Assembly (NCBI GenBank): GCA_964409365.1
Contig: CAYPCX010000007.1
Coordinates: 18,655-82,654 of the forward strand
Direction of reading: 5' to 3'
From: an uncultured Planctomycetia bacterium
Lineage (GTDB): Bacteria; Omnitrophota; Gorgyraeia; Tantalellales; Tantalellaceae
Length of the DNA stretch: 64,000 nt
The notes under the pieces are model-generated. The model was not told the DNA's origin, made no database searches, and saw only the letters and a program-made list of their open reading frames with translations. A program made the position numbers and the translations under genes. Below are positions 1 to 58,567 of the stretch, piece after piece (the first letter of the stretch is position 1; every line of letters starts with the position of its first letter).

Positions 1-966
<966 letters not shown>

Positions 967-1052
967 CAAGTACCAAGGATAAAGGAAAAAGGATACAGGA
1001 TAAAGTGGCAAGTAGCAAATGCCGAGTGTTGAGAAAATCAGGAGGAGGATTT

Positions 1053-3962: not shown

Positions 3963-4349
3963 ATGGAAGACAGAAGCTATAAAGCCAAGTTGCTTATCGC
4001 GGATGACGAGCTGAATATCAGGGATATACTCAGGGATTTTTTTATACGGAAGAAATACCAGGTGGACACGGCCTCAAGCGGGAGAGAGGTCGTGGAGAAA
4101 CTGAAGCAAGACAAGCCGGACATACTGCTTCTCGATCTGAGGATGCCGGATATGACCGGGGAAGAAGTGCTCAAGTTCATTGACGACAATAAGATAAACG
4201 TCGGCATCATCATAATTACGGGTTACCCGGGTGAGGTCAAGAACAGGAAACTCCTTAACAGGACCTATGATTTCGTGGTGAAGCCGTTCGATCTGGATTA
4301 TCTGAACAACACGGTCTTGACAAAGGTGATCCTTCTTACCGAGGGATAG
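3963..4349 (+). CDS. single-domain response regulator (CheY-like receiver)
   Basis: KLLIADDE...ILLLDLRMPDMTGEEVL...VVKP receiver signature. 128 aa, no output domain. Confidence 0.8.
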   Translation: MEDRSYKAKLLIADDELNIRDILRDFFIRKKYQVDTASSGREVVEKLKQDKPDILLLDLRMPDMTGEEVLKFIDDNKINVGIIIITGYPGEVKNRKLLNRTYDFVVKPFDLDYLNNTVLTKVILLTEG

Positions 4350-5457: not shown

Positions 5458-6270
5458 ATGGACTTTTTGACTTACTGGCACATGGAAGAGAAACCGTTCG
5501 AGAACACGGGGGACCCGAAGTTCTTCTACTATTCTCCCTGTCACAAGGAAGCGCTGGTGAGGCTGATCTACGTCATAAGGCAGAACAAGGCGGGGGCCCT
5601 GCTTGCCGGGGATTACGGGACGGGAAAGACGACCATCGCCCACGAGCTTTTGATGGAGATAGAGCAGAGCGACCGGTATTGCAGCGTGTATATAAGCAAT
5701 CCCCTGCTGTCGCCGGAAGAGCTCATACAGGAAATAGCTTACCAGCTCGGGATCACGCAGGAGGGCGCCTCGCGCCTGCAGCTGAAACGCATGATAGAGG
5801 AACGCCTGCACCAGGTGGCGGAGGAGAACAACCATACCATAATAATCGTCGACGAGGCGCATCTGATAACCAACAAAGAGGTGCTCGAAGAACTGCGCCT
5901 CATGATGAACCTGCAGGTAAGGAACCGCTTTCTGGCGACGATAATCATGATGGGCCAGCTTGAACTGAGGGATATAATCAACGCCATGCCGCAGTTCAAA
6001 CAGCGGTTCGCTATATTCTACGTGCTCAGGAACCTGGACGAGGATGAGACGCTCAAATATGTCCAGCACCGGCTGGGCGTGGCCGGGGCCAAATATACCA
6101 TATTCGACGACGAGGCGAACAGCCTGATATTCAGGTCATCCAGCGGGAGGCCGCGGCAGATAAACAACATCTGCGATATGGCTCTTCTTGTGGGGTACAT
6201 GAAAAAACTGGATGTGATCAACGGGCAGGTGATCCGGGAGGTAGTCAAGGATCTGGGAAGCGAGATCTGA
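5458..6270 (+). CDS. ExeA/GspA-like AAA ATPase of the type found in PEP-CTERM/exosortase EPS loci
   Basis: Walker A GDYGTGKTT and Walker B IIIVDEAH. Size and order match the ExeA-like secretion ATPase that accompanies Wza/Wzc in PEP-CTERM-type loci. Confidence 0.8.
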   Translation: MDFLTYWHMEEKPFENTGDPKFFYYSPCHKEALVRLIYVIRQNKAGALLAGDYGTGKTTIAHELLMEIEQSDRYCSVYISNPLLSPEELIQEIAYQLGITQEGASRLQLKRMIEERLHQVAEENNHTIIIVDEAHLITNKEVLEELRLMMNLQVRNRFLATIIMMGQLELRDIINAMPQFKQRFAIFYVLRNLDEDETLKYVQHRLGVAGAKYTIFDDEANSLIFRSSSGRPRQINNICDMALLVGYMKKLDVINGQVIREVVKDLGSEI

Positions 6271-11608: not shown

Positions 11609-13120
11609 ATGGAAATGGATTTTAAGGAAGATATAGTATCTGGAACGGTCGAGGAAGATGGCTCTCTTGCCCGGCGCGCCGTAAAAGGGGGCGTATGGGT
11701 TTTCGCCCTGAAGACGGCCCACAGGGTATTGGGGCTGATCAGGACGATAATACTGGCCAGACTTCTCTCTCCCGCCGATTTTGGCCTCATGGGCATAGCG
11801 GTCCTGGCTATCGGCACGCTCGATACGTTCTCCCAGGCGGGCCTGGAGCCGGCCCTCGTGCAGAAAAAAGGGGATATAAGGCCCTACCTGGATACGGTAT
11901 GGACGGTCAAGATAATACGTTCCGTCGTTCTCTTCGGCCTTTTGTATGTCAGCGCCCCGGTCATCGCGGGATTTTTTAAGACCTCCCAGGCGCTGCAGGT
12001 AATAAGGGTCCTTGCTTTTCTTGAGCTCTTCATGGGGATAAAGAACATAGGGACGGTGTATTTCCAGAAAGAGCTGCAGTTCGACCGGCGTTTTATCCTG
12101 GAGTTCAGCGGCCTGGTCGCGAATATAGGCGTTTCCATTACACTGGCGTTCGTGCTTAGAAATGTGTGGGCGCTGGTCTGGGGGTCGCTGGCCGGGGCTT
12201 TTGTCACGGGCATAGTCTCCTATATGGTCCACCCCTATAGGCCCCGGATAAGGTTCGGATCAGGCAAGGCGAAGGAGCTTTTTCGTTTCGGAAAATGGTT
12301 GTTCGGGTCAAGCATACTGTATTTCCTGATAACCCAGGGAGATAACGCGTTCGTGGGGAAGGTCATAGGCATCACCGCGCTTGGCCTTTACCAGATGGCA
12401 TACCAGCTGTCCAACGCCCCGGCGACGGAAATAACGCATGTCGTTTCATCCGTCACGTTCCCGGTCTATTCGAAGATACAGGATGACATGGCAAGGCTGC
12501 GGAAGGTGTATTCGGAGGTCCTTCAGCTGAACGTGTTCCTGGCGGCCCCTATGGCTACCGGCATATTCATACTTGCTCCCGATTTCACCAGAATATTCCT
12601 CGGGGAGAAATGGCTCCCGATGGTGCCCGCGATGCAGCTATTGGCCCTGGCCGGGTTTTTGCGGGCCCTGGCGGGCACTACAGGCGCCATGTTCTACGCT
12701 CTGGGCAGGCCGAAGACGGAGACGTTGTGGCAGGGGATAAGGTTGGCGACGCTCGCGGCGCTTATATTTCCTTTGAGCATGCAATGGGGCATTTCCGGCA
12801 CGGCCTTAGCCGTATGCGCGAGCATACTGGTAGCGACCGTCGGTTTTTTTCACAGCGTAACGAGGTTGACCCGTATACCGTTCGGTATTCTCGCGAAAGC
12901 GATAGGGTACCCCGTCGCGAACACTGTGGTCATGGCGGCGTTTATGGCCTTCATGAGACGGAAGATGCAGATCGCGGGCATACCGGGGTTCATTTTTCTT
13001 GTCCTCGCGGGCTTGGCGGTATATTTAGTGGCGAGCTACGTGTTTGAACGGTTCTCTTCTTATGACGTGTTTAACGTGTTAAAGACAAGGTTGAAAGGGC
13101 AGGCCGGCCATGATCGGTGA
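11609..13120 (+). CDS. Wzx-type oligosaccharide flippase (polysaccharide biosynthesis protein, MOP superfamily)
   Basis: 503 aa, about 12-14 TM segments, N-terminal KGGVWVFALKTAHRVLGLIRTIILARLLSPADFGLMGIAVL typical of PST-family flippases. Confidence 0.8.
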   Translation: MEMDFKEDIVSGTVEEDGSLARRAVKGGVWVFALKTAHRVLGLIRTIILARLLSPADFGLMGIAVLAIGTLDTFSQAGLEPALVQKKGDIRPYLDTVWTVKIIRSVVLFGLLYVSAPVIAGFFKTSQALQVIRVLAFLELFMGIKNIGTVYFQKELQFDRRFILEFSGLVANIGVSITLAFVLRNVWALVWGSLAGAFVTGIVSYMVHPYRPRIRFGSGKAKELFRFGKWLFGSSILYFLITQGDNAFVGKVIGITALGLYQMAYQLSNAPATEITHVVSSVTFPVYSKIQDDMARLRKVYSEVLQLNVFLAAPMATGIFILAPDFTRIFLGEKWLPMVPAMQLLALAGFLRALAGTTGAMFYALGRPKTETLWQGIRLATLAALIFPLSMQWGISGTALAVCASILVATVGFFHSVTRLTRIPFGILAKAIGYPVANTVVMAAFMAFMRRKMQIAGIPGFIFLVLAGLAVYLVASYVFERFSSYDVFNVLKTRLKGQAGHDR

Positions 13121-16873: not shown

Positions 16874-16881
16874 CACCGGTC

Positions 16882-16916
16882 ACTGGAAACTGGTTACTGG
16901 TTACTGGTTACTGGTT
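16882..16916. repeat. perfect heptamer tandem array (ACTGGAA)(ACTGGTT)x4 in a 50-bp intergenic spacer
   Basis: Read directly. It lies between the stop at 16873 and the ATG at 16924. Confidence 0.9.
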
Positions 16917-16923
16917 ACTTGAT

Positions 16924-19097: not shown

Positions 19098-20296
19098 GTT
19101 TTCTTGAATTTATACGGCACGTTGTGAAGCAGATAGTCGAGAGCGTCGAGTATATGCTGCTGAGCGTTACTCTGCTCAGGGGGAAAAGACACGTCCGGGC
19201 CGTGGAACCGAATGAAGTGCGCCCAAAAAAAATACTGATCGTCCAGATGAATTCTATAGGGGATGTTCTAATGATGACCCCGGCTTTGAGAGCTTTAAAG
19301 CGGTGTTTCGGAGATAGCACGATAGATGTGCTGGTGCAGCCTTTCGCGGCGGACCTTTTGCGGGAAGATCCGGATATTAACGGGGTTTATTCCTGCGGCT
19401 GGGCGTTCTGGAGAGGCCGTTTCACACAACCAGCGGCTTTCAATAGATCAGCGAGAACGGTCAAAGCGCTCAAAAGCGCCCGGTATGATCTCTGTGTGCA
19501 CTTTGGCCGGAATTTCGAAACGGTCGTGAACGCTTTGCTTGCCGAGGCGGCGGTCACGGTCGGGTTCCGGCAGACCGTCAAAAGGGGCATATTCAGAAGG
19601 AACGCTGAAGATCTTTATGACATAGCCGTCGATACGGATGAAAAACATATCGCGAGACAGGCCCTTCAACTGGTAAAGTTTCTTGGATGCGAAGGCGCGG
19701 CCGAAAAAGAAGAACTTTTTATCTCCGTTGAAAAAACGAAAGGGACGGAAGCCTTCCTCAGGGAGAACGGCCTGGGCGAAGGGGATTTCGCGGTCATGCA
19801 CCCCGGAGCTAAGTGGCCCCCGAAACGGTGGCCTAAGGGCAGTTTTGCCCGGCTGGTGAAGTTGATATTCGACGAGAAGGGCATGAAGACGGTGCTTATC
19901 GGCAGCGCTTCCGACAAAGAGCTTTTGCGGAAGATAAAGGAGGAAAGCGGTATTCCCGATACGGTGATAGCCGGAGATCTCGATCTGGCGGCGGCCGCCG
20001 CGGTGATACGGAAAGCGTGTGTTTTCGTGGGTAACGATTCGGGGCCGGCGCACATGGCCGCTGCCCTGGGTACGGATACCGTAGTGCTTTTTGGCCCGAC
20101 GGATCCCGAGGCCTGCCGTCCTTTAGGGGGGGGAGTGAAGATATTTCACTATAAGGTCCCATGCTGGCCGTGTATGATGTATTACAGGAGGGACAGGTGT
20201 GAGGCCGGATCTAATGTCTGCCTCCAGAACATCAGCGCCGGGGACGTATATGAAACCGTCGGCCGGATCATAGAAAGGAAAGGACATGGTGGATAA
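19094..20296 (+). CDS. glycosyltransferase family 9 (heptosyltransferase-like) with extra C-terminal Cys-rich tail
   Basis: KILIVQMNSIGDVLMMTPALRALK and FVGNDSGPAHMAAALG are GT9 RfaF/RfaC-like motifs. C-terminal PCWPCMMYYRRDRCEAGSNVC. Confidence 0.8.
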   Translation: MSFLEFIRHVVKQIVESVEYMLLSVTLLRGKRHVRAVEPNEVRPKKILIVQMNSIGDVLMMTPALRALKRCFGDSTIDVLVQPFAADLLREDPDINGVYSCGWAFWRGRFTQPAAFNRSARTVKALKSARYDLCVHFGRNFETVVNALLAEAAVTVGFRQTVKRGIFRRNAEDLYDIAVDTDEKHIARQALQLVKFLGCEGAAEKEELFISVEKTKGTEAFLRENGLGEGDFAVMHPGAKWPPKRWPKGSFARLVKLIFDEKGMKTVLIGSASDKELLRKIKEESGIPDTVIAGDLDLAAAAAVIRKACVFVGNDSGPAHMAAALGTDTVVLFGPTDPEACRPLGGGVKIFHYKVPCWPCMMYYRRDRCEAGSNVCLQNISAGDVYETVGRIIERKGHGG

Positions 20297-23272: not shown

Positions 23273-24747
23273 TCGCGCACACGGTAAAGTTCATACAGGA
23301 AAAGAGATGGCAGCTGTTCTTTTTGCTGGCGCTTTGCGTCCTGGTGTACTGGAAAGGGCTTCATTATTATTTTGTTGACGATGACTGGGGGTGGCTCAAG
23401 TTCTCGTCGATCACGGACAACTGTTTTAAATATTTCAACCCGTTCTACAAGCCCCTCTTGGCGCGGACTAAATTCTTCAGGCCCGTGCCGTTGATGTTCG
23501 TCTGCGGCATTTATCACGCGTACAAGATGAACCCGTTCCCGTACCACCTCTTTATGCTGGTCTTCCACCTGTTCAATGTCGCCCTATTGTATAATTTCGT
23601 CCACATGATATCAAAGCATAAGACGTACGCTTTTGTAGCCAGCCTTATATTCGCGTTCCATTTCGAGAATTTCATGGGAGTGTTATGGCTGGGGAATGTA
23701 CATTCGATGCTGAACGTCTTTTTCATATTTTTGGCGCTTACAGCGTGGTACCGGTTCCTGGGATCCGGGAATAAACTGTTCTACGGGGGCGCCCTGGCAT
23801 CGTTCACGCTGGCTATATTTTCCAAGGAACTGTCCATTTATTTTCTCAGCGTGATCATGTTCTCCGTGGACCTGATATTTGCCCGGAAGATACGGCCGGG
23901 GACGTTCCGCGAGCTCCTCTCTTGGAGGTTCTGGAGGAAATACGCCCCCTTCGGCCTGGCTATAGTTTTCTATCTGGTGAATTACGCGATCTACAGGTAC
24001 CCCTTTACGTATTCATACGGGTACGGGTTCCATTTTAACGGGATAGACCAGGTGGCCATAATATTGAGGATGCTCCAGCTGATGCTGATAGGCACGTATT
24101 CCCCGACACTGCTGAAAGCCTTTATTGGCGCGGCTTTTGCGGTATTCCTCGTATTCGCGCTGTTCATGGACCGTGATCTTAATAGGACAAAGGACCGGCT
24201 TATCTGGCTCGGCGGTATATGGCTGATAGCCCCAACGCTTTTGATATCTGTTTATTCCAAAGAGAGGCTGCATTACTGTTATCTCATGTCGATAGGGCTG
24301 GGTCTTGTCGCCTCGGGCCTTGTGTCGCAGGTCTTCCTGAAAAAAAAGGGTCTCTTGCGGGTGTTAGCGGCTGTCCTGCTGGGCGTTCTGGTGTTATATT
24401 GGGCGATTGACATGAACCACAGTGCCGCGCAACGGATCAGCGGCGAATGGTACAGGAGCCTGATAGCACAAGTGCACTCTTATCTTCCCGATGTGTCCGA
24501 AGACGAAAAGATGATGTTCGTGCCGGAAAAAAGAGGAGCCCGGTTCACTTACGCCAGGCTGACAGGTGTTGTATACCCGCTTGAGGTCAGTTACGGGAAG
24601 GAACTGGATATCGAGATCTGTTTCAGGGAAGAACTGGACAAGGATCCCGGAAGGATGGAAGGGTTCACCGTCTTTAAAGTCGACAGCGACATAAAGAGAG
24701 AATATATCAAGATAGAGCCGTATCGAAGGATAAAGGATAAAGGATAA
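23269..24747 (+). CDS. second large polytopic membrane protein, putative GT-C-type glycosyltransferase
   Basis: ATG 23269 overlaps the preceding stop (ATGA). About 13 TM helices. Periplasmic-loop motif YYFVDDDWGW near the N-terminus as in ArnT/PMT-type enzymes. C-terminal soluble domain. Confidence 0.55.
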   Translation: MIAHTVKFIQEKRWQLFFLLALCVLVYWKGLHYYFVDDDWGWLKFSSITDNCFKYFNPFYKPLLARTKFFRPVPLMFVCGIYHAYKMNPFPYHLFMLVFHLFNVALLYNFVHMISKHKTYAFVASLIFAFHFENFMGVLWLGNVHSMLNVFFIFLALTAWYRFLGSGNKLFYGGALASFTLAIFSKELSIYFLSVIMFSVDLIFARKIRPGTFRELLSWRFWRKYAPFGLAIVFYLVNYAIYRYPFTYSYGYGFHFNGIDQVAIILRMLQLMLIGTYSPTLLKAFIGAAFAVFLVFALFMDRDLNRTKDRLIWLGGIWLIAPTLLISVYSKERLHYCYLMSIGLGLVASGLVSQVFLKKKGLLRVLAAVLLGVLVLYWAIDMNHSAAQRISGEWYRSLIAQVHSYLPDVSEDEKMMFVPEKRGARFTYARLTGVVYPLEVSYGKELDIEICFREELDKDPGRMEGFTVFKVDSDIKREYIKIEPYRRIKDKG

Positions 24748-24752
24748 AGGTT

Positions 24753-25448
24753 ATGGGGGCGGAGCCGGAAAAAATAAGCATAGTCATACCCGTTTTCAAC
24801 GAAGGCGTTCATATCGAAAAGTTCCTGGGGGACCTTTTCCGGTCGTTCGCGGAAAAAGAAAGACCTGAGGTCATCGTCGTGGACGACGGGTCCACCGACG
24901 ATACTCCGGAGCGCCTTGAAAAGTACGGCATGGAAACGATCCGTCATGAAAGAAGAAGCGGTTACGGCGCTTCCCTGAAAAGCGGCATTCGCCGCGCCAC
25001 AGGTGAATATATATGCATAATCGACGCCGACAACACCTATTCGGCAGACGACATATTGCCGATCTCTTCCGAAGTGGCCGGTTATGATATGGTCGTGGGC
25101 GACAGGCAAGACGATGACGAGAGGCCGAAAGACCACCTCCTCGCGAAAAAGTCGGTGGAGAAGATACTTTCGAACATCTCCGGGGTCCGGGTCGAGGACC
25201 TGAATTCGGGCCTGAGGATAATGCGAAAAGATATACTGGTGAAATATCTCGACTCTCTGCCGAATGGTTTTTCGTTCACTTCGTCACTGACGCTCATAAT
25301 GCTCCTGAAGAAGTACAGGATAAAATATATTCCCATCCGGTACGAAAGGCGTGAAAAGGGTACGAAGGTCAGGAGGGTAATGTTCGTGGCGGCTTTTGTG
25401 TCGGGATATTTAAAGATACTCTGCCGTTATTTTACCGGCAGGCTTTAA
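24753..25448 (+). CDS. polyprenyl-phosphate glycosyltransferase (GT2, DPM1/ArnC-like)
   Basis: ISIVIPVFNEG...VIVVDDGSTDDT, IIDADNTY (DXD). C-terminal TM tail typical of ArnC-like enzymes. Confidence 0.8.
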   Translation: MGAEPEKISIVIPVFNEGVHIEKFLGDLFRSFAEKERPEVIVVDDGSTDDTPERLEKYGMETIRHERRSGYGASLKSGIRRATGEYICIIDADNTYSADDILPISSEVAGYDMVVGDRQDDDERPKDHLLAKKSVEKILSNISGVRVEDLNSGLRIMRKDILVKYLDSLPNGFSFTSSLTLIMLLKKYRIKYIPIRYERREKGTKVRRVMFVAAFVSGYLKILCRYFTGRL

Positions 25449-29163: not shown

Positions 29164-30324
29164 ATGAAGCGGTATAAGATCTTACATGCGATAACGCGTT
29201 TAGATAAGGGCGGTTCCTCCGTGAACACGCTGCTCAGCGCTATCGGCCTCGCGGAAAAGGGATATGAAGTGGATCTTTTATCCGGCCGGACGATGGAACC
29301 GGATAATGATCTTATCGAACGGGCCGGGAGTTCGGGGGTGCGTTTTATTTACGAGGAACGCCTGGTCAGGGATATACATCCCGTAAAGGATATCACCGCG
29401 TTTTTCAGGGTGCTGGGCTTTCTGCGCAGGAACCGGTACGATATCGTGCACGCCCATTCGTCGAAAGCGGGGCTCATCTGCCGGATGGCCGCGAAATGCG
29501 CGGGAGTAAAAAATACAGTGTACACCCCCCATGGCCACGTGTTCTACGGGTATTTCGGCAGGGAACTTTCCCGGATGGTGGTCTTCGCCGAGGCGCTGCT
29601 GGCCCATATAACGGACAGGACGATCGGGCTTACTCCCGCCGAGTGTGACGAGTGGCTCCGTTTCGGGATAGGAAAAAAAGATATGTACGAAGCCATACCC
29701 AGCGGTATAGAGTTCGACCGGCTGGAACTCGAGGCGGAGAAAGGGAAAGACTGGAGGAAGGAGCTCGGGATCCCCCGGGAAGCCCCGTTTATCGGGTCCA
29801 CAGGCAGGTTCGCCGAGGTGAAAGGCTATAAATATTTTATAAGAGCGGCCGCGGAACAGGTAAAAAAACACCCGGATACACATTTTCTGCTGGCAGGCGA
29901 CGGGCCCCTCCGCGGTGAATTCGAAAAGATTATCAAAACCAGCGGGATCGAAAAGAATTTCCACATCATAGATTGGCAGGAGAACGCGGGGTCTGTTATA
30001 AAAGCGTTCGATGTTTTCGTGCTTTCCTCTCTTAACGAAGGGATGGGGAGGGCCCTGATAGAGGCGATGTTCCTCTGTAAGCCCGTTATAGCCACGCGTG
30101 TGGGAGGTGTGCCTTCGGTGGTATCGAAGGATACGGGGGCGCTTGTTGAGCCCGCCTCGTCTCAGGCCCTGGCGGCGGCCATGGACAGGCTGCTTAGTGA
30201 CCGGGGTAAACTGGAGGAGATGGGAAGGAAAGCCAGAGAGAGGGCGCTTGCCGGTTATTCGGCGGGCGAGATGGTGAACAGGCTTGACAAACTGTACAGG
30301 GAACTGTTAGAAAATAATAAGTAA
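29164..30324 (+). CDS. glycosyltransferase family 4
   Basis: SSLNEGMGRALIEAMFLCKPVIATRVGGVPSVV GT4 signature. Confidence 0.8.
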   Translation: MKRYKILHAITRLDKGGSSVNTLLSAIGLAEKGYEVDLLSGRTMEPDNDLIERAGSSGVRFIYEERLVRDIHPVKDITAFFRVLGFLRRNRYDIVHAHSSKAGLICRMAAKCAGVKNTVYTPHGHVFYGYFGRELSRMVVFAEALLAHITDRTIGLTPAECDEWLRFGIGKKDMYEAIPSGIEFDRLELEAEKGKDWRKELGIPREAPFIGSTGRFAEVKGYKYFIRAAAEQVKKHPDTHFLLAGDGPLRGEFEKIIKTSGIEKNFHIIDWQENAGSVIKAFDVFVLSSLNEGMGRALIEAMFLCKPVIATRVGGVPSVVSKDTGALVEPASSQALAAAMDRLLSDRGKLEEMGRKARERALAGYSAGEMVNRLDKLYRELLENNK

Positions 30325-30467
30325 CAAGGACAAAGGATAAAGGAAAAAGTAACAAGTAAGCAGGGTATAGGTGGATATTCGATGTGCTATATACGATATG
30401 CGAAATACGATATACTGGTTGCAAAACAAAAACCCTTAATTCTTAATACTTGATACTTTTTACTCGA
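30321..30467. repeat. 147-bp (21 x 7) heptamer-periodic degenerate array filling the intergenic spacer
   Basis: Read in register: gtaacaa ggacaaa ggataaa ggaaaaa gtaacaa gtaagca ... cccttaa ttcttaa tacttga tactttt tactcga. Contains the 17-mer aaggataaaggaaaaag, also present at 975-991. Confidence 0.8.
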
Positions 30468-30481
30468 AACGGATCGTTTAC

Positions 30482-31168
30482 ATGAAGATAGCTATACACC
30501 AGCCGCAGTATCTCCCATGGACGGGATATTTCGATAAGATGGACCGGGCGGACGTCTTTGTCCTTCTGGACGATGTCCAGTACAAGAAGAACGAGTGGCA
30601 GAACCGTAACCGCATCCGTAATGCCGAAGGCTGGCAATGGATCACGGTCCCCGTCCTGTACGAGTTCGGCCAGAAAATAAACGAGGTCAGGATCAATAAT
30701 AAAGAGAACTGGAGGGAGAAGCACCTTAAAAGTCTCGAGGTCAACTACTCCCAGGCCGCCCATTTTGATGAATATATCCTTTTTTTCAGGAAGCACTACG
30801 CTTGTGAATGGGAGAAGCTGGTCGATATAAACGTCCGTTTTATCGAATACCTGGCGGACACGATGGGTATAACGACGGAGATCGTGAGGAGTTCTTCGCT
30901 GGGCATAGGCACTGAAAAGACCCGGCGGCTGATCGATATATGCAAAGCGGTGGGTGCTGACGAGTACCTTTCCGGGGCGGGAGGGGGCGACTACCTCGAG
31001 GAAGAAAAGTTCGCCGGTGAAGGCATCAGGCTTGAATACCAGAAATATGAACAGAAACCCTATGAGCAGGTGTATAATGGATTTTGTCCGGACCTTTCGG
31101 CCGCGGACCTTTTATTCTGTTGCGGGAAAGACAGTATCAATATAATAAGGGAAGGGAGAAAAGAATGA
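30482..31168 (+). CDS. WbqC-like family protein
   Basis: MKIAIHQPQYLPWTGYFDKM...VLLDDVQYKKNEWQNRNRI is the hallmark WbqC-like N-terminus. Confidence 0.75.
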   Translation: MKIAIHQPQYLPWTGYFDKMDRADVFVLLDDVQYKKNEWQNRNRIRNAEGWQWITVPVLYEFGQKINEVRINNKENWREKHLKSLEVNYSQAAHFDEYILFFRKHYACEWEKLVDINVRFIEYLADTMGITTEIVRSSSLGIGTEKTRRLIDICKAVGADEYLSGAGGGDYLEEEKFAGEGIRLEYQKYEQKPYEQVYNGFCPDLSAADLLFCCGKDSINIIREGRKE

Positions 31169-34885: not shown

Positions 34886-36016
34886 ATGAGCATGTGTAAT
34901 GAAAAAACAACAGGAAATGTCGCGCCGGAAGGCGACTTGACCAGCCTGTATATCAACCCTACCAGATACTGTAACCTTAAGTGCAGGCATTGCTGGATAT
35001 CTCCGCCGCAGAAAGAAGAACTGGACGGAAAGGGCGGAGAACTGTCGACCGGGGAGATCACAGGGATCATAAAAGAAGCGAAGGGACTGGGACTTAGGGA
35101 CGTCAAGTTCACCGGTGGAGAGCCGCTTTTACGGAAGGATATTACGGAACTTTTGAGGTTCTGCTATGAAGAAGAGGTAAAAACTTCCATAGAGACCAAC
35201 GGCACTTTGATCGACAAAGAGCTGGCTTCAGCCATGAAAAGATACGGGGTGTCTTTCATAGCGGTGAGCCTCGACAGCTACCGGGAAGAACTGAACGACC
35301 GTTTCAGGGGGCGCAAGGGAGCGTTCAAAAAGGCATTGGCGGGCATCAGGGCGCTGATCGACGAGGGCATCAGGCCGCAGGTGATTATGAGCATGTACAG
35401 GGAGAATTTCACCGACCTGCCCGAGTTCCTGAAGATGATGCAGGATCTGTGGGTCAATAATATCAAGCTGAACACTATAACGCCTCTGGGAAGGGGGGCC
35501 TCGCTTTATGATACAGGTGAGATACCCTCGGTCAGGGAGATACTCGAGTTTTTGGAAAGGCTCGGCAGTATCAGAAGGTCGTTCAAAGGCCGGTTATACC
35601 TGGACGTTCCTATAGCTTTCAAAAGTGTCGAGGAAATACACGCGGGCTGTGGGGTGTGTCACATCAAGAATATCCTCGGCATATTGTCGGACGGGAGTGT
35701 CTCTATCTGCGGGATAGGCCATCTTGAGGAGGAATTGCTTTTCGGGTCGGTCAGAGAAGATCCATCCGCATTGAAGTACATCTGGCGCGAAAATACCGTC
35801 CTTAAAAAGATCAAAGAGGAAATACCTTACAAGTTGAAAGGGGTCTGCAGCATCTGTGTTTTCAGGAACAAGTGCCTGGGGTACTGCAGGGCCGAAATAT
35901 ATCATAACACCGGGGATCTTTTCGCGCCGTACTGGTTTTGCCAGGAAGCTTATGACAAGGGGCTTTTTCCTCCAACCAGGCTTGTGCCGGAACCTTTGAG
36001 AGCGGGATATGGATAG
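34886..36016 (+). CDS. radical SAM/SPASM domain peptide-maturase-like enzyme 2
   Basis: CNLKCRHC, FTGGEPL. SPASM cysteines (CGVCHIKN...CGIG...CSICVFRNKCLGYCRAE). Confidence 0.8.
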   Translation: MSMCNEKTTGNVAPEGDLTSLYINPTRYCNLKCRHCWISPPQKEELDGKGGELSTGEITGIIKEAKGLGLRDVKFTGGEPLLRKDITELLRFCYEEEVKTSIETNGTLIDKELASAMKRYGVSFIAVSLDSYREELNDRFRGRKGAFKKALAGIRALIDEGIRPQVIMSMYRENFTDLPEFLKMMQDLWVNNIKLNTITPLGRGASLYDTGEIPSVREILEFLERLGSIRRSFKGRLYLDVPIAFKSVEEIHAGCGVCHIKNILGILSDGSVSICGIGHLEEELLFGSVREDPSALKYIWRENTVLKKIKEEIPYKLKGVCSICVFRNKCLGYCRAEIYHNTGDLFAPYWFCQEAYDKGLFPPTRLVPEPLRAGYG

Positions 36017-36815
36017 CATTTCTTATAGTGCTTTCAGGACAACCATACGTCTTAATTTCCTTAATTTTGAAGAAAGACCGGAATTATTCAAGCCGTCCGA
36101 TTCGCGGGGGGAAGGAAAAGCAGATCTGGATATTTACCTGTACAGGGGCAAGCGCAAGGAGATATCCCGCAAAGCGGAGAGAAGCCGTTTTCCGGTCAGC
36201 GCGGAGACGTTCGAAGGCAAGAAGGTCATCCGGCTTTACGACGGTAAGAGCAAAAGGGTCTTCTGTTTTTTTGAGGAAGGCCTGCTCATCGATCTGGTGA
36301 CGAACAGAGCGCTCAACCTTCCCCTGATGGACCTTCAGAACGTTCTGGACATTGTTTTCATGCATTCCGCTTCGATAGTGATGAACGGCAAGGCGTACCT
36401 TTTTATAGCTCCGAGCGGGGGCGGGAAAAGCACGATAGCCGCTCTGGCCCGGGATGAGGGTTTTTTTGTGATAGACGATGATTTCTGCGCGGTGAAAAGG
36501 TCCGGCGGGAGCTTTTTCGCGGCGCGTTTTCCGTGTTTTCTGTCGAAACGAAAAAGATTTAAAGAATGGGAAGTGGGTGGGCTTTTTCTTCTGAACAAGT
36601 CAAAAGAGAACAAGGTAAGGCCCGTTTCGGGCATCGAAGCGTTGCGCGATGCACTGCCCGAAGCGGTCCGTTATCCCCGTGAGAGAGTAGGCGCCATGCG
36701 GAACCAAGATTATCTCAGGGATGTTTTTTGTTTCCTGGACGAGATGATAGATCGTGTAGGGTTGAGCGTTCTTGATTTCAAGAAGGAAGCAGGTGTTTTC
36801 TCGTGTCTGGTCTAA
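36009..36815 (+). CDS. HPr kinase/phosphorylase C-terminal-domain-like P-loop protein (HprK-related kinase)
   Basis: HSASIVMNGKAYLFIAPSGGGKSTIAA matches the HprK C-domain P-loop region (HG..V...G.G.L..G.SG.GKS). 268 aa, no N-terminal HprK domain. Confidence 0.6.
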   Translation: MDSISYSAFRTTIRLNFLNFEERPELFKPSDSRGEGKADLDIYLYRGKRKEISRKAERSRFPVSAETFEGKKVIRLYDGKSKRVFCFFEEGLLIDLVTNRALNLPLMDLQNVLDIVFMHSASIVMNGKAYLFIAPSGGGKSTIAALARDEGFFVIDDDFCAVKRSGGSFFAARFPCFLSKRKRFKEWEVGGLFLLNKSKENKVRPVSGIEALRDALPEAVRYPRERVGAMRNQDYLRDVFCFLDEMIDRVGLSVLDFKKEAGVFSCLV

Positions 36816-38548
36816 GCTTTTTCGACGGCATTTTCGCTTCGAGGCGTCTTGTTTTACTTGAAGACCTGAAGGGTGTCCTGTCTTATGCGTCTGGCATACT
36901 TAAGAAAGACCGCTTTTCCCTGGCAATGGCCTCTTTCCTGAAGCTTTTAAGTTTCCCGCTGGGTATATCGATAGTCTACATAACGAAAGAGACCTTGGAT
37001 AAAGGTATAATGTCTAAGGACCTGAGGTCGTTCGGGTTCTTCACTGCGCTGGGCCTTTTCGTTTTTCTTCTCATGAGAGTGCTGCTGTACTTTTCGGGGA
37101 GGATCATGAACAGCGTGAAGACAAAGTTTTCCCTTGCGGTGGATCATGACCTTGCCAGGAGGCTTTTCGGTCTTGATTATCTGAAGATAAGACAACTGAG
37201 CTCCGCTGAGAACGCTTTTTACGTGAGTTACGATTGCGGTATCATCGAGAACCTGGTATTCTACGAGCTTCCCGCTCTTTTATCCTTTGTGAAAATACCC
37301 GTTTTCTTTATCCTCGCGGCGCTTTTGTCCTGGCAGTTGAGCCTATTCGTGTTTCTGGCTGTCCCGTTCGCTGTAATGCATACTATCTGGGCGTCGCGAA
37401 AGAGGCGGAGATTGAGATCGGGGTATGTGAAATCAGCGGGCAAGTCCAACGCGCTTTTTAGTGACTTCCTGATCAACGTTAAGCTTATCAAGAGCTTTTT
37501 TAAGGAAAGCTGGGCCGTTGACAGGATCATGAGACGGTTCCGGAGAAAGGCCAGGATAGACCTTTTATCTTCCCGTTTCAGGCAGGTCGAGAGATTTGTA
37601 TACGATATTTTTTCAAAATCCAGCACGGCAGCATTCTGGCTGCTGGGAGGGTATTTAATAATAACCGGCAAGTTAAGTCTTGGATCTTTCAGTGCCGTAA
37701 GCATGTATTCCGCGATGCTGTTATCAGAAGTATACAACCTGGGGTCCATTGTACGGAACCTGAACGAGGAGGGGCCTTCTATACACAGGAGTGCGCAATT
37801 TATAAGGGACATTACCGGGCCGGCTGAAGATGTTCCCGCGGTGCCGGTATCTGGCAAGTCGTTTTTTGGTGGAGATATCGAGTTCAGGGATATCGCGTTC
37901 GGATATAGTAAAGAAAAGCCTCTTTTCCAGGGACTGAACATGCTGGCGCCCGCGAGAAAGTGGACGTTGATAAAAGGTCCTTCCGGCGTCGGCAAGACAA
38001 CGCTTCTAAGTTTGATGATCAGGCTCTTCAGGTCCTGGCGCGGCGGGATCTATATCGGGGGGACGAATATCTTTGATGTGGACATTGGCCGCTTTTCCGG
38101 ATACGTTTCATGCGTGCATCAGGAATCGTATATATTCAATGACACCATCTTTAACAATGTACTTTTGGGTGATAAGAAGCCGGGCGGTCTCGTCAGGGAG
38201 GTCATGCGATTGACAAGGCTTGACGAGCTTGCCGATGACCTTTCTATCGGCTATAATACCAAGATAGGCGAACTTGGCGCAACCCTTTCAGGGGGGCAGA
38301 AGCAGCGGGTCGCGATCGCGAGAGCACTTATAAGAGAACCGAAGGTGCTTATACTGGACGAAGCGACTTCGTTTCTTGACGCCAGGATGGAAAGTGATAT
38401 TTTGAGCGACATAAAGGAACAGTTTTCCGGGCTCACGGTCCTGTATGTCACTCACAGGGAGACCGCGGACAGGTTCGCCGATGTTATCTTTGAACTTAAA
38501 GAGGAAAGGGTCGGATATGGAAGAGAAATGTCCTGTAAGAAATCCTGA
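36803..38548 (+). CDS. ABC transporter, fused permease/ATPase (exporter type, no peptidase domain)
   Basis: N-terminal 6-TM exporter domain. NBD with Walker A GPSGVGKTT, signature LSGGQKQRVAIARAL, Walker B ILDEATS. Confidence 0.85.
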   Translation: MSGLSFFDGIFASRRLVLLEDLKGVLSYASGILKKDRFSLAMASFLKLLSFPLGISIVYITKETLDKGIMSKDLRSFGFFTALGLFVFLLMRVLLYFSGRIMNSVKTKFSLAVDHDLARRLFGLDYLKIRQLSSAENAFYVSYDCGIIENLVFYELPALLSFVKIPVFFILAALLSWQLSLFVFLAVPFAVMHTIWASRKRRRLRSGYVKSAGKSNALFSDFLINVKLIKSFFKESWAVDRIMRRFRRKARIDLLSSRFRQVERFVYDIFSKSSTAAFWLLGGYLIITGKLSLGSFSAVSMYSAMLLSEVYNLGSIVRNLNEEGPSIHRSAQFIRDITGPAEDVPAVPVSGKSFFGGDIEFRDIAFGYSKEKPLFQGLNMLAPARKWTLIKGPSGVGKTTLLSLMIRLFRSWRGGIYIGGTNIFDVDIGRFSGYVSCVHQESYIFNDTIFNNVLLGDKKPGGLVREVMRLTRLDELADDLSIGYNTKIGELGATLSGGQKQRVAIARALIREPKVLILDEATSFLDARMESDILSDIKEQFSGLTVLYVTHRETADRFADVIFELKEERVGYGREMSCKKS

Positions 38549-38789
38549 TATCGTGGCGCGAAGGGAGAAGAAAGAAGCGCTTCTTTTCAATCCCGCTGAT
38601 GGCCACATGCTGTGTATTAACGGTACCGGTATGTTCGTCTGGGACCTGTGTGACGGGTCAAGTTCGGGGGACGATATTGTCGAAAAAATAGCGAATGTTT
38701 ATGAAATTACTTGCGAAAAAGCGACCGAAGATTATGATCGCTTCATAAAGGATATGGAGAAAGCCGGATTTATAGGATACAGAACCTGA
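38517..38789 (+). CDS. PqqD family protein (stand-alone RiPP recognition element-like peptide chaperone)
   Basis: ATG 38517 lies within the end of the ABC gene. NPDIVARREKKEALLFNPADGHMLCINGTGMFVWDLCDGSSSGDDIVEKIANVYEI...ATEDYDRFIKDMEKAGFIG matches the PqqD pattern closely. Confidence 0.7.
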   Translation: MEEKCPVRNPDIVARREKKEALLFNPADGHMLCINGTGMFVWDLCDGSSSGDDIVEKIANVYEITCEKATEDYDRFIKDMEKAGFIGYRT

Positions 38790-38799
38790 AGGGGGCCGT

Positions 38800-39096
38800 A
38801 TGAAGAAGAAAAAGAAGAAGTACACTCCTCCTCTTGTCCATGACCTGAGCGGTACGACTATCAGGGGGGCCCAGGCGTTCAATTGCAAAAGCGGCGCCGA
38901 AGCCGGACAGCTTTGTGATTTCGGCGCTGTGGCCGGTGGACAATGCAATACCGGAAGGGTGGCTACGCTCGGATGCTCTGCCGGCGCTGAATACGTCCCG
39001 ATGCCGAAACAATGCAGACCCGGGTTCATGGCTACCCAGCAGTGCCGTGACGGCACGTCGGCTCAGGGCACGTGTAAGACGGGATTCGGCTTTTAG
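38800..39096 (+). CDS. candidate RiPP precursor peptide: 98-aa Cys-rich peptide with a hexa-lysine N-terminus and seven tandem C-x-x-G decapeptide repeats
   Basis: gggggc RBS 6 nt upstream. MKKKKKKYTPPLVHDLSGTTIRGAQA then FNCKSGAEAGQL CDFGAVAGGQ CNTGRVATLG CSAGAEYVPMPKQ CRPGFMATQQ CRDGTSAQGT CKTGFGF. Eight Cys; every repeat starts C-x-x-G. Sits between the PqqD and peptidase genes. Confidence 0.55.
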   Translation: MKKKKKKYTPPLVHDLSGTTIRGAQAFNCKSGAEAGQLCDFGAVAGGQCNTGRVATLGCSAGAEYVPMPKQCRPGFMATQQCRDGTSAQGTCKTGFGF

Positions 39097-41955: not shown

Positions 41956-43080
<1,125 letters not shown>

Positions 43081-43108
43081 TATCCAACATCTAAGATCTA
43101 ACATCTGA
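43081..43108. repeat. heptamer-periodic degenerate repeats (tatccaa catctaa gatctaa catctga)
   Basis: Read directly. Reverse complement resembles the gatgttagat units at 46741-46790. Confidence 0.6.
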
Positions 43109-43135
43109 CTTGTCGTTCTCTTCTTATATACACTG

Positions 43136-45826: not shown

Positions 45827-46714
45827 ATGCTGCATTTCAATGAAAAGGGGTATAAGGAAGGCGAAAAAGGCGCCTGGCTGGGGATACTCACCAATATCCT
45901 TCTTTTCGCGATCAAGTTCGCCGCGGGGGTTTTGGGCAGGTCCCAGGCGATGGTGGCCGACGCTTTCCATACCGCGAGCGACGCGTTCACCAGCATAGGT
46001 GTGCTGATAGGGTTCAAGATAGCGCAGAGGCCCCCCGACAAGCACCATCCTTTAGGGCACGGGCGGGCGGAATCGATAGTCGCGAAGATAGTATCTCTTA
46101 TCCTCATACTGGTCGGCCTGGAGGTCGCCTACCACTCGGCGAGGGTCCTTATCGCCGGGAAGATGACGGAACCCGGGAACATAGCTCTGGTGGTGGTCAT
46201 CATCTCCATAATCGTGAAAGAGATGACATACCGCCGGGTGATCGCCGTCAGCAGCAGGATAAAGAGCCTTTCGCTTAAGACGGACGCTTACCATCACCGG
46301 AGCGACGTGCTTTCATCCGTGGCGGCTCTCGTGGGTATAGTGGGAGCCAAGTTCGGCCATACGTTCATGGACCCGCTGGCCGGTATAGTCGTAGGCGCTT
46401 TTATCATAAAGATCGGGGCGGAAGCGTTCCACGCGGCTTACGATGAACTGATGGACGCCGCGCCCTCGGAGGAGTTCAAGGGGAAGGTGCGGGGAATAGT
46501 CGCCGGCGTAGAGGGCGTAAAAGAAGTGAAGGACATAATGGCAAGGAAGACGGGGATCGAGTATTTCCTCGAGGTTATTATAGGAGTGGACGCTACGAAG
46601 ACGGTAGAGGAAGGCCACACCGTTACCATGAAGATAAAGAGGGATATGTTCAAGGCGATGCCGGATGTAAGGGACGTTATAGTCCACGTCGAGCCTTGCG
46701 GCGCATCCGATTAA
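45827..46714 (+). CDS. cation diffusion facilitator family metal efflux transporter
   Basis: AIKFAAGVLGRSQAMVADAFHTASD, six TMs, C-terminal cytoplasmic domain ending VHVEP. Confidence 0.85.
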   Translation: MLHFNEKGYKEGEKGAWLGILTNILLFAIKFAAGVLGRSQAMVADAFHTASDAFTSIGVLIGFKIAQRPPDKHHPLGHGRAESIVAKIVSLILILVGLEVAYHSARVLIAGKMTEPGNIALVVVIISIIVKEMTYRRVIAVSSRIKSLSLKTDAYHHRSDVLSSVAALVGIVGAKFGHTFMDPLAGIVVGAFIIKIGAEAFHAAYDELMDAAPSEEFKGKVRGIVAGVEGVKEVKDIMARKTGIEYFLEVIIGVDATKTVEEGHTVTMKIKRDMFKAMPDVRDVIVHVEPCGASD

Positions 46715-46740
46715 CCCGGAAACAATATGCAGGTTAACGG

Positions 46741-46887
46741 GTTTTGATATTAGATGTTAGATGTTGGATGTTAGATATTTGATGTTAGATTTTAGTTGTT
46801 AGTTTTTAGTTCTTAGTTTTTAGTCGTACAACTCATAACTAACAACTCACAACTCAATACTCAATACTTTATACTTGATACTTATGA
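46741..46887. repeat. 147-bp (21 x 7) heptamer-periodic degenerate array with three unit sub-families (tgttaga / ttttagt / ctcacaa-ctcaata)
   Basis: Read in register from 46741: gttttga tattaga tgttaga tgttgga tgttaga tatttga tgttaga ttttagt tgttagt ttttagt tcttagt ttttagt cgtacaa ctcataa ctaacaa ctcacaa ctcaata ctcaata ctttata cttgata cttatga. The last unit contains the recJ ATG. Confidence 0.85.
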
Positions 46888-51198: not shown

Positions 51199-51273
51199 TA
51201 GGTGTAAGGTGTGAAGTGTTAGTTTGCCGTGGATCCTAAGGGGGATGTAAGATGTTGGATATTAGATATTTGA
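51199..51273. repeat. heptamer-periodic degenerate repeats downstream of recG (taggtgt aaggtgt gaagtgt tagtttg ... tgtaaga tgttgga tattaga tatttga)
   Basis: Read directly. Same unit family as 46741-46790. Confidence 0.6.
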
Positions 51274-51349
51274 TGGGGGAAGAAGACATGTCTTTTTCCA
51301 AAGGCCTGTAACCTGTTTTCTGTTCACTGTTCACTAACATAGCGAGCAC

Positions 51350-54789: not shown

Positions 54790-54824
54790 TTCAGGTTCCA
54801 AGTTGCAGGTTTCAGGTCTCAGGT
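54790..54824. repeat. heptamer tandem array (ttcaggt tccaagt tgcaggt ttcaggt ctcaggt)
   Basis: Read directly, immediately after the rpmF stop. Confidence 0.8.
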
Positions 54825-54848
54825 ATTCGGATAATGACGGAGGTTTAA

Positions 54849-55841
54849 ATGAGGATAGGTTTGGACGCGATGGGCGGCGACAAGGCTCCCGAGAGCCCTG
54901 TGGGCGGCGCGGTCATGGCGGTCAATGAGTTCGGGTATCATGTCACACTGGTGGGCAGGGAGCACGAGATACGCGGCCACCTGAGGGACTATGACTACCC
55001 GGCCGACAAGATAGACGTGATCAACGCCACACAGACGATCGATATGGGCGAACCCGCCGCGCTTTCCGTAAGAAAGAAACGGGATTCCTCTATCGTCAGG
55101 GGTGTCGACCTTTTGAAGAACGGTGTTTTCGACGCGTTCGTGAGCGCCGGGAATACAGGCGCCGTGGTCTGCGCGGCCACGCTGAGCCTGCGGCTCCTGC
55201 CGGGCGTGGACAGGCCGGGCATAGCAGTGATAATGCCGAGCCTTCACGAGCCCTGCATGGTCATAGACGTGGGCGCCAACATAGACCCCAAGCCTTTTCA
55301 TCTTTTGCAGTACGGCATAATGGGGGACGCGTATTCCAAACACATATTGTCGAAACACAATCCCACTATAGGCCTTTTGAATATCGGCGAGGAATCCACC
55401 AAGGGCACGGATTTTATCAAAGAGACCCACATGATGCTTTCGGAAAGCAAGCTGAATTTCATAGGGAACGTCGAGCCCAAAGACGTGTATTGCGGCAATG
55501 CCGATGTTGTCCTGTGCGACGGGTTCGTCGGGAACGTCCTGCTGAAGGTGACCGAAGGGCTCGTTGACGCCGCGACCGCACTTCTGCGCCGCGAGTTCAG
55601 GCACAGCAGTTTCGTAGCGAAGTTCGGCGCGACCCTTACGCTTCCCGTTATCAATAATATCAAGAAGAAGGTGGACTCGGCCGAGTACGGCGGGGCGCCG
55701 CTCATGGGGGTCGACGGCAGCGTTATAATAGCGCACGGGGCTTCCAACGATATAGCTATAAAGAACGCGGTGCGCGTCGCGGGCGAGTTCGTGGACCATA
55801 AAGTGAACACGCACGTCGTCGAGGAACTGCAAAGCTATTAA
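54849..55841 (+). CDS. plsX: phosphate acyltransferase PlsX
   Basis: MRIGLDAMGGD, SAGNTGA, GFVGNV motifs. 330 aa. Confidence 0.9.
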   Translation: MRIGLDAMGGDKAPESPVGGAVMAVNEFGYHVTLVGREHEIRGHLRDYDYPADKIDVINATQTIDMGEPAALSVRKKRDSSIVRGVDLLKNGVFDAFVSAGNTGAVVCAATLSLRLLPGVDRPGIAVIMPSLHEPCMVIDVGANIDPKPFHLLQYGIMGDAYSKHILSKHNPTIGLLNIGEESTKGTDFIKETHMMLSESKLNFIGNVEPKDVYCGNADVVLCDGFVGNVLLKVTEGLVDAATALLRREFRHSSFVAKFGATLTLPVINNIKKKVDSAEYGGAPLMGVDGSVIIAHGASNDIAIKNAVRVAGEFVDHKVNTHVVEELQSY

Positions 55842-55897
55842 GTTATGAGTTATGAGTTATGAGTTGTGAGTGAGGAGTTGGGAGTTCGGAGTTAAAA
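55842..55897. repeat. heptamer tandem array: (gttatga)x3 gttgtga gtgagga gttggga gttcgga gttaaaa
   Basis: Read directly. Starts at the base after the plsX stop and runs to the fabH RBS. Confidence 0.9.
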
Positions 55898-58377: not shown

Positions 58378-58502
58378 GTACTTGTTGTTGTCGTTCTTTT
58401 ATGAGGTGACAAAGGTAAACCTGCCGAGAGGCAGGGACACAAAGCCACGGGTGCTTTTGTCCGGGCATTACTTCAGGAATATCGGACAGAAAGTAACGCA
58501 TA

Positions 58503-58567
58503 GCCGGGCTGCCGGATCGTTCATAACGCGGAAACGCGCGTTATATCGAAAAGCAGCCCGGTTTTTT
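58503..58567 (+). terminator. terminator-like/attenuator-like nested hairpin with U6 tract inside the 5' leader of the RHS gene
   Basis: Outer stem ccgggctgc/gcagcccgg encloses inner stem ataacgcg/cgcgttat, followed by tttttt at 58562-58567. Ends 52 nt before the ATG at 58620. Confidence 0.45.

Follow-up and report, generated by a model that had tools for sequence, protein, structure and literature searches.

Long simple-sequence repeats (LSSR) are a described component of bacterial genomes, and heptanucleotide units are their most abundant class in LSSR-rich genomes, according to the survey of Mrazek et al. 2007 as summarised in two later papers (PMC4679880, PMC4692102). The same summaries give as a suggested cause a slippage of the polymerase that is tied to the length of DNA held by the enzyme (PMC4679880, PMC4692102). 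Named heptamer examples are the short tandemly repeated repetitive (STRR) sequences of Calothrix and Nostoc and the GGGAATC/GGGGAYT repeats of Xanthomonas and Nostoc, the latter sometimes occurring as inverted pairs and being under-represented between divergent genes (PMC4692102). TAACTGA repeats are found in marine Beggiatoaceae and in some Cyanobacteria and Bacteroidetes, often just upstream of start codons without ribosome-binding sites (PMC4679880), heptanucleotide elements occur in Geobacter metallireducens (PMC2700814), and heptamer runs reportedly have modest effects on the expression of recF and recO in Nostoc (preprint, 10.1101/2022.06.06.494920). Here we describe degenerate heptamer arrays in the intergenic spacers of a 64-kb stretch of contig CAYPCX010000007.1 (assembly GCA_964409365.1), hereafter the window, the largest of which lies between a cation-efflux (CDF) gene and recJ. 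A preliminary description of the window had found no named repeat class that fitted these arrays; heptanucleotide LSSR are, however, a described category, and the arrays belong to this general class and to none of the specific named families. Our search of the literature found no report of such repeats in Omnitrophota, the phylum of the host.

In roughly one spacer in three the 7-bp periodicity is real and far beyond chance. Nine loci hold period-7 arrays according to Tandem Repeats Finder, each with 0% indels (Table 1); they include every locus named in the preliminary description and one, at 24726-24750, that was absent from its list. When the window was scanned for 21-nt windows with a self-match of at least 80% at a given lag (lags 2-20 plus 21), lag 7 returned 11 segments (441 nt), lag 14 returned six and lag 21 returned three, with zero segments at the other lags of 2-20 anywhere in the 64 kb; a stricter scan with 35-nt windows had the same outcome. 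Fifty composition-preserving block shuffles likewise gave zero segments, against the 11 observed at lag 7. Among the 22 spacers that measure at least 25 nt, lag 7 is the best of lags 1-12 in 7, with lag-7 z-scores (z7) of 5.0 to 11.9, one further spacer has a local array only, at its 5' end (43077-43109), and the remaining 14 show no period-7 signal (z -2.6 to 1.4). The spacers do, then, hold degenerate 7-bp-periodic tandem repeats, as had been claimed and as both Tandem Repeats Finder and the lag scan bear out. The further suggestion that the periodicity runs through spacers across the window is right in that the signal is real and overstated in its extent, since only 7 of 22 spacers are periodic overall and 14 have nothing.

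The 11 lag-7 segments all lie between genes, save for overlaps confined to a gene's last codons. No open reading frames (ORFs) cover the arrays, which yielded no credible ORFs or small peptides, in keeping with the earlier view that they have no coding potential, and they match no Rfam family. They are also, as previously stated, not CRISPR arrays, the units being 7 nt long and contiguous whereas CRISPR repeats are 24-48 nt long and alternate with unique spacers; no cas genes are among the genes annotated in the window. Several arrays fit a higher-order period of 14 better than one of 7 in Tandem Repeats Finder, with 85% against 80% matches at 46746-46823, 87% against 78% at 43077-43106 and 80% against 71% at 30374-30413, a pattern that points to growth through the duplication of two-unit blocks.

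The CDF-recJ spacer is 169 nt long, with the CDF gene ending at 46714 and recJ starting at 46884. Positions 46741-46887 divide into 21 heptamers, adjacent units sharing 4-7 of 7 bases throughout except at the centre, where they share 1 of 7; this stretch is therefore two runs, of 12 and 9 units, rather than one. Its autocorrelation at multiples of 7 exceeds that at neighbouring lags to about lag 63, and its last heptamer overlaps the recJ start codon. The units change gradually along the array, from NTTAGAT to NTTAGTT, and the two runs face one another as gapless inverted arms (46791-46827 and 46828-46864, 73% complementary, dyad centre 46827/46828). The array begins 28 nt past the CDF stop codon, behind a small hairpin and T-run at 46713-46747 that is possibly a weak intrinsic terminator, separate from the array; a terminator scan did not pick up this hairpin. 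The whole spacer folds no better than its shuffles (z = -0.83), and there is no Shine-Dalgarno (SD)-like motif upstream of recJ. We note that a TATACT hexamer inside the array (in 46867-46886) ends about 12 nt before the recJ ATG, so that a very short recJ leader or a leaderless transcript is conceivable. A promoter role for the array as such we reject, the sole match there in our promoter scan being a weak one, 9 of 12 positions at 46846-46875; the scan found 25 sites in all against 13 expected.

The second stretch that had been singled out, 30321-30467, lies in a 157-nt spacer between a GT4 glycosyltransferase gene and a WbqC-family gene. It holds three runs (units 1-6, 8-13 and 17-21) with junctions at chance level (2-3 of 7), and its autocorrelation at multiples of 7 vanishes by lag 42. 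This composite, too, contains an inverted repeat, 30341-30358 pairing with 30447-30464 over 18 nt at 89% complementarity. The predicted hairpins of the two composites are weak (-13.6 kcal/mol with z = -2.5, and z = -1.8). The two arrays reported to be exactly 147 bp long are in fact two runs in one case and three in the other, and their equal length arises because the boundaries were chosen by the earlier reader, the actual spacers being 169 and 157 nt long. We reject 147 bp as a meaningful length on both grounds, the arbitrary boundaries and the threefold make-up of the second array. We know of no meaning that a nucleosome-sized length would have in bacteria.

Table 1. Heptamer arrays of the window and one adjoining hairpin, with the period-7 rows of Tandem Repeats Finder
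Feature	Position	Strand	Units and particulars	Period-7 rows
queA array	958-1034		NGCAAGT-type units flanking an (AAGGATA)x4.4 core at 975-1005; spacer z7 = 5.0	975-1005
GT4-GT4 array	16878-16919		(GGTTACT)x6, 88% matches; z7 = 9.7	16878-16919
Array at 24726	24726-24750		(AAGGATA)x3.6, perfect copies; overlaps last codons and stop (24745-24747) of upstream gene; next ATG at 24753	24726-24750
GT4-WbqC, first run	30311-30362		AAGTAAC/AAGGATA-type, 7 copies; begins at stop codon (30322-30324) of GT4 gene	30311-30359
GT4-WbqC, second run	30374-30415		(GATATAC/GATATGC)x6; period 14 (80%) better than period 7 (71%)	30374-30415
GT4-WbqC, third run	30435-30467		CTTAATA/CTTGATA units; includes TACTTGATACTT; ends 14 nt before WbqC-family ATG at 30482	30435-30458
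tgt-yajC array	43077-43109		(CTAACAT/CTAAGAT)x4.3, reverse complement of GATGTTAGAT family; starts at tgt stop (43078-43080)	43077-43106
Small hairpin	46713-46747	+	Arms 46713-46723 and 46733-46743, then TTTT; overlaps last bases of CDF stop codon (46712-46714)	
CDF-recJ array, left half	46742-46827		12 in-register heptamers, NTTAGAT x7 then NTTAGTT x5	46746-46883 (several overlapping, across both halves)
CDF-recJ array, right half	46828-46884		9 in-register heptamers, NNANAAC then TNNATAC; runs into recJ ATG (46884)	
recG-rsmD spacer	51201-51340		Three short runs: GGTGTAA-type 51201-51221, GATGTTA family 51243-51277, CTGTTCA 51306-51340; z7 = 5.2	51320-51335
rpmF-plsX array	54791-54826		(TTCAGGT/TGCAGGT)x5; begins 2 nt past rpmF stop; plsX SD GGAGGT next; z7 = 5.0	54791-54824
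plsX-fabH array	55835-55894		(AGTTATG)x3 decaying to AGTTGTG, AGTGAGG, AGTTGGG etc., 7.7 copies; z7 = 6.1	55841-55894

Every array-bearing spacer lies between genes on the + strand, and the neighbouring products, confirmed by Pfam and homologues, include GT4 and GT2 glycosyltransferases, a WbqC-family protein, TGT, YajC, CDF, RecJ, RecG, L32, PlsX and FabH. At eight of the nine loci the array begins no more than a few bases from the upstream stop codon, in several cases on the stop itself, the exception being CDF-recJ. The queA array extends from the queA stop (966) to 18 nt before the next ATG, whose SD sequence is GGAGGAGG; the GT4-GT4 array fills the 50-nt spacer that separates two glycosyltransferase genes, stopping 4 nt short of the ATG at 16924, where there is no SD-like motif; and the plsX-fabH array, the minus-strand unit of which is TAACTCA, starts at the plsX stop (55839-55841) and is followed by the fabH SD sequence GAGGAG. 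Beyond its array, the 141-nt tgt-yajC spacer is aperiodic and contains a promoter-like site and the yajC SD sequence. We also note that the three AAGGATA units at 24726-24750 place TAA at 24731, 24738 and 24745, a stop in all three frames within 21 nt, and that the last of these is the real stop of the upstream gene; the same property holds for any heptamer that contains a stop triplet.

Certain unit families recur between loci. The GATGTTAGAT (GATGTTA) family is present at 43075-43112 on the minus strand and at 46746-46804 and 51244-51274 on the plus strand, with 14 matches against 0.10 expected, and so confirms the earlier statement that families recur in both orientations. AAGGATA units are found at three loci, on the sense strand each time, and TACTTGATACTT is found exactly at two loci and as variants elsewhere, in both orientations relative to transcription. 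This recurrence (GATGTTA at three loci, AAGGATA at three and TACTTGATACTT at two) is real but only moderately beyond chance.

In their head-to-tail 7-nt units, their length beyond chance and their non-coding bias the arrays resemble LSSR, and they share with them a patchy phylogenetic distribution in which rich genomes stand beside poor close relatives, as far as the summaries cited above describe it. Unlike previously described LSSR they are short, at 3-12 units, and strongly degenerate, and they are often composites that combine several unit types in a single spacer. The cyanobacterial STRR sequences of Calothrix, Nostoc and Anabaena likewise comprise several heptamer families, intergenic and in either orientation. 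STRR families each occupy many loci per genome, and three families of the window occur at 2-3 loci or more each within its 64 kb. The host, however, is a member of Omnitrophota and not a cyanobacterium, and the unit sequences are different. The STRR1-3 units are CCCCAGT, TTGGTCA and CAACAGT, and no Tandem Repeats Finder consensus unit of the window equals any of them.

TAACTGA repeats, which are intergenic and present in 2-6 or more copies, are approached by those window arrays that lie directly upstream of SD-less start codons and by related units, TAACTCA at 55839-55866 on the minus strand and CAACTCA/TAACTAA at 46829-46849 on the plus strand. The exact TAACTGA repeat is absent from the window, the best matches having 2-3 mismatches per 14 nt (7 matches against 3.3 expected). 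Moreover, the window arrays differ from these repeats in having many unit families, in being anchored at upstream stops and in showing no consistent forward orientation, and 4 of the 9 loci, those before the genes starting at 1053, 43222, 54849 and 55914, end short of a normal downstream SD sequence, unlike the TAACTGA type that overlaps the ribosome-binding site. With the GGGAATC/GGGGAYT repeats the arrays share an intergenic position near ORF ends, rarity between divergent genes, an occasional arrangement in inverted pairs and variability between related species. The window units, however, are rich in A and T and lack G3-4 tracts; as none has a G3 tract in four repeats, G-quadruplexes cannot form in the window. 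Finally, the imperfect palindromes between co-transcribed genes, near stop codons, recall the repetitive extragenic palindromic (REP) sequences and bacterial interspersed mosaic elements (BIMEs) of enterobacteria. REP sequences are dispersed copies of one conserved 20-40-nt sequence mobilised by the RAYT transposase; in contrast to these, and to miniature inverted-repeat transposable elements (MITEs), the arms here are tandem heptamers of variable sequence, and both arm and centre sequences differ between loci.

Comparison with related genomes indicates that the CDF-recJ array is recent. The host is a Candidatus Omnitrophota, as its RecJ homologues of 58-74% identity come from metagenome-assembled genomes annotated as such; a RecJ search of genome-collection contigs returned only a 29%-identical WOR-3 match and no close relative. 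Five Omnitrophota relatives (RecJ 58-72% identical) keep the gene order around CDF and recJ, and their spacers are 29, 14, 0, 6 and 16 nt long. Set against the 169 nt found here, these lengths mark the CDF-recJ array as a lineage-specific gain, by recent insertion or expansion, rather than a conserved element. Against the 11 lag-7 segments of the window, about 21 kb of each relative yielded 1-3 (L006), 1-2 (L136) or none (L007, L008, L135 and L137), although in L008 two short spacers reach a z7 of about 4. The arrays of the relatives sit at different spacers and are built from different units, such as GTCTCGT/ACGAGNC at 6203-6341 of L006 (GCA_034723315.1), where a composite with (GNCTCGT)n and (NCACGAG)n arms fills the yajC-secDF spacer and folds at -59.9 kcal/mol (z = -6.2). 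The array trait is thus patchy within the clade, and its units vary between genomes. As a separate observation, at least two long spacers of L006 (about 11760-11940 and 19355-19540) contain copies of a dispersed repeat, CGTAACGGAATTTCAATAACCAAAGCCGTAGGAGCCGCC...GGGGGATTTTTTAATTTAT, that is about 190 nt in length, and a third, partial copy lies at about 19540-19640; this repeat looks MITE-like and accounts for the unusually long spacers of that genome.

Independent assemblies reproduce the window arrays. An ENA megahit contig (L010) spans the CDF-recJ array and Logan contigs from four runs flank it, and these five assemblies are identical to the window through all the arrays that they cover, the few single-nucleotide polymorphisms lying elsewhere. 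Each of the Logan contigs either stops at 46821 or begins at 46828, at the centre of a 37-nt imperfect palindrome in the largest array, which is where de Bruijn assemblers are expected to break. One further Logan contig end, the start of L134 at about 55841, falls within the plsX-fabH array.

Similar arrays also occur in metagenomes. A scan for four consecutive TTAGNTN units found at least 120 loci, so that the statistics given here, which are all among the matches listed, describe loci selected by one unit type, with crude ORF calls. The 730 kb of sequence around them contain 249 lag-7 segments, compared with 3-45 at other lags, meaning that contigs holding one array tend to hold more, a pattern in line with a mutational propensity of the genome as a whole. 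Of 217 arrays, only 21 (10%) lie mostly inside long ORFs. Among the array flanks, 188 are gene 3' ends and 126 are 5' ends, a departure from parity of about 3.5 standard deviations; 35% of the 3'-end flanks fall between -15 and +10 nt relative to the stop. Neighbouring arrays are reverse-complementary in 18 of 48 pairs, against a background of 8% (p about 1e-8), and some of these inverted pairs are very stable, for example that of contig L047 (-73.9 kcal/mol, z = -8.4). Another contig, L054 (Ga0076076_103), has eight heptamer arrays in 10.7 kb, including the inverted pair (GCTTTTA)4 ... (TAACAGC)3 at 5742-5851, and belongs to the Parcubacteria group bacterium GW2011_GWD2_38_12 (GyrA 100% identical); we found no description in the literature of heptamer-rich spacers in Patescibacteria. 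We note in addition that on a GC-rich (71%) contig, L075, (GGGGATT)n faces (AATCCCC)n at 4044-4126 in a hairpin of -53.5 kcal/mol, which places units of the Nostoc/Xanthomonas G-quadruplex repeat type in a dyad arrangement.

How might such arrays arise? The explanation that we favour, and regard as reasonably probable, is that blocks of 7 nt and 14 nt were tandemly duplicated by a slippage-type process in intergenic DNA that tolerates it, and that the copies later decayed by substitution. Short spacers would grow as 7-nt units, and later 14-nt blocks of two units, were duplicated in tandem, whether by replication slippage or by unequal exchange; mismatch repair cannot correct loops as large as 7 nt. 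The copies would then decay by point substitution without indels, so that the register stays strict while the units drift. Where a run meets its reverse-complement run a quasi-palindrome would result, whose symmetry intrastrand template switching could maintain and which could form a hairpin. The periodicity, the intergenic position, the absence of indels, the higher-order 14-nt period, the lineage-specific gain and the dyads are observed; slippage, template switching and neutrality we infer. On this account no sequence-specific function would be needed, and the main effect would be extra AT-rich, partly hairpin-forming spacer between co-transcribed genes. In favour of the slippage account are the restriction of tandem periods to 7 and its multiples with 0% indels, the better fit of several arrays to period 14, the gradual drift of units along an array, the gain of the CDF-recJ array in one lineage, the different spacers and units of the arrays in relatives, the use of both orientations relative to transcription, the lack of Rfam and ORF matches, and the abundance of further arrays in the metagenome contigs.

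Several observations nevertheless weigh against it. Slippage alone leaves unexplained the choice of 7 nt over 5, 8 or 10. Purely local slippage also does not predict that families recur at separate loci, whereas consensus units match between spacers 9 times, against 4.4 +/- 1.9 for letter-shuffled units (P = 0.028), and a 25-nt block, GATGTTGGATRTTAGATATTTGATG, is present at both 46760-46784 and 51251-51275 with one mismatch, which hints at copying between loci. The preference of the arrays for stop codons and regions downstream of genes could reflect function and not mere tolerance. There was, furthermore, no copy-number polymorphism among the five assemblies, although this is a weak test with genomes that are 99.98-100% identical. 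Together, the recurring families, the anchoring at stop codons and the dyads leave room for a REP-like or protein-binding role, and such a role may exist.

One form that it might take, which we think possible but unlikely, is that the arrays are cis-regulatory sites at which a heptamer-reading protein tunes the translation or transcription of the downstream gene. Such roles have been proposed before: ribosomal protein S1, a cold-shock protein or a CsrA-like protein as candidate readers of the Beggiatoaceae TAACTGA repeats (PMC4679880), and regulation by the heptamers upstream of recF and recO in Nostoc (10.1101/2022.06.06.494920). The recurrence of unit families at several loci is consistent with this idea, as is the fact that the AAGGATA arrays, on the sense strand at all three loci, contain an SD-like AAGGA. 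Four array-preceded starts have no SD-like motif (16924, 30482, 46884 of recJ and 51350), and in two of these, 16924 and recJ, the array abuts the ATG. However, many array-free genes also have no SD-like motif, and with no clear association between the two we reject the notion that arrays replace SD sequences. Relative to transcription, the GATGTTA and TACTTGATACTT families face either way, anchoring is at the upstream stop and not at the downstream start, the units are degenerate and differ between spacers, and the arrays are absent from the orthologous spacers of the relatives, all of which argues against a regulatory site.

It is also doubtful, in our estimation, that the dyad composites are REP-like hairpins at gene 3' ends, acting as RNA stabilisers, as weak terminators or attenuators, or as DNA cruciforms or protein-binding sites. 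Inverted arms are present in both long composites of the window, the yajC-secDF composite of L006 and the inverted pair of L047 are predicted to be far more stable than their shuffles, and the metagenome loci, among the matches listed, show both the excess of inverted neighbours and the bias towards 3' ends and stop codons. The published GGGAATC/GGGGAYT repeats show a similar inverted pairing and avoidance of divergent genes (PMC4692102). Yet the hairpins of the window itself are weak, and the CDF-recJ spacer as a whole is unremarkable in its folding; no T-run follows the arms; most window arrays (those at 16878, 24726, 43077, 54791 and 55835) have a single orientation and no partner; and the metagenome figures carry the limits of their ORF calls and of a selection by one unit type. 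A variant that joins this idea to slippage would make the stop-codon-abutting inverted pairs a distinct class of self-expanding hairpin, common to many uncultivated lineages including Omnitrophota and Patescibacteria, in which slippage lengthens one arm, template switching restores the symmetry, and the product either has a REP-like use as a 3'-end RNA stabiliser or attenuator or is read by a heptamer-binding protein. We put this forward as speculation of low probability; were it true, the recurring families and the multi-unit blocks would reflect selection or active copying, and not chance.

That the arrays are, or are carried by, a small MITE-like mobile element inserting into intergenic DNA seems to us very improbable. 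Such an element might supply the roughly 150 nt that CDF-recJ has in excess of the five relatives, the inverted arms of the composites and the multi-unit blocks common to several loci. We found, however, no conserved ends, no target-site duplications and no shared central sequence; the composite centres are wholly different between loci and contigs, and array length and unit vary continuously. With neither ends nor centres in common we reject this reading. Chance, base composition or an assembly artefact can be given next to no weight: short-read contigs do break within the largest array, but the shuffles that give zero segments, the specificity for lag 7 and its multiples, and the identical sequence in the spanning ENA contig and in the Logan contigs of four runs that adjoin the break from either side refute it. 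Slippage followed by decay remains the account that we prefer.

Two other features of the window deserve mention. A c-di-GMP-I-GGC riboswitch (RF03167) is found at 58405-58517 on the plus strand (66.2 bits, E = 1.9e-13), and is followed immediately by a giant ORF of more than 1,824 aa, which starts near 58527 and continues past the end of the window. A gene cluster at 34886-39096, partly conserved in the relatives, encodes a radical-SAM enzyme, ScmC, an ABC transporter, PqqD and small ORFs, and looks like a peptide-maturation cluster of the kind that makes ribosomally synthesised and post-translationally modified peptides.

Why bacterial LSSR favour a 7-nt unit, and whether they have any role, has been a question since the reports of STRR sequences and the 2007 survey. 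The window adds Omnitrophota to the phyla that carry LSSR, and the metagenome contig described above adds a Parcubacteria genome. In practical terms the arrays, and their palindromic centres above all, break short-read assemblies of these genomes. They also offer a natural comparison, in that six Omnitrophota species share one syntenic string of genes, one lineage having gained arrays and the others having spacers of 0-29 nt. This six-species set could show what changes with the arrays, be it the ends of transcripts, the coupling of adjacent genes or the set of replication and repair genes.

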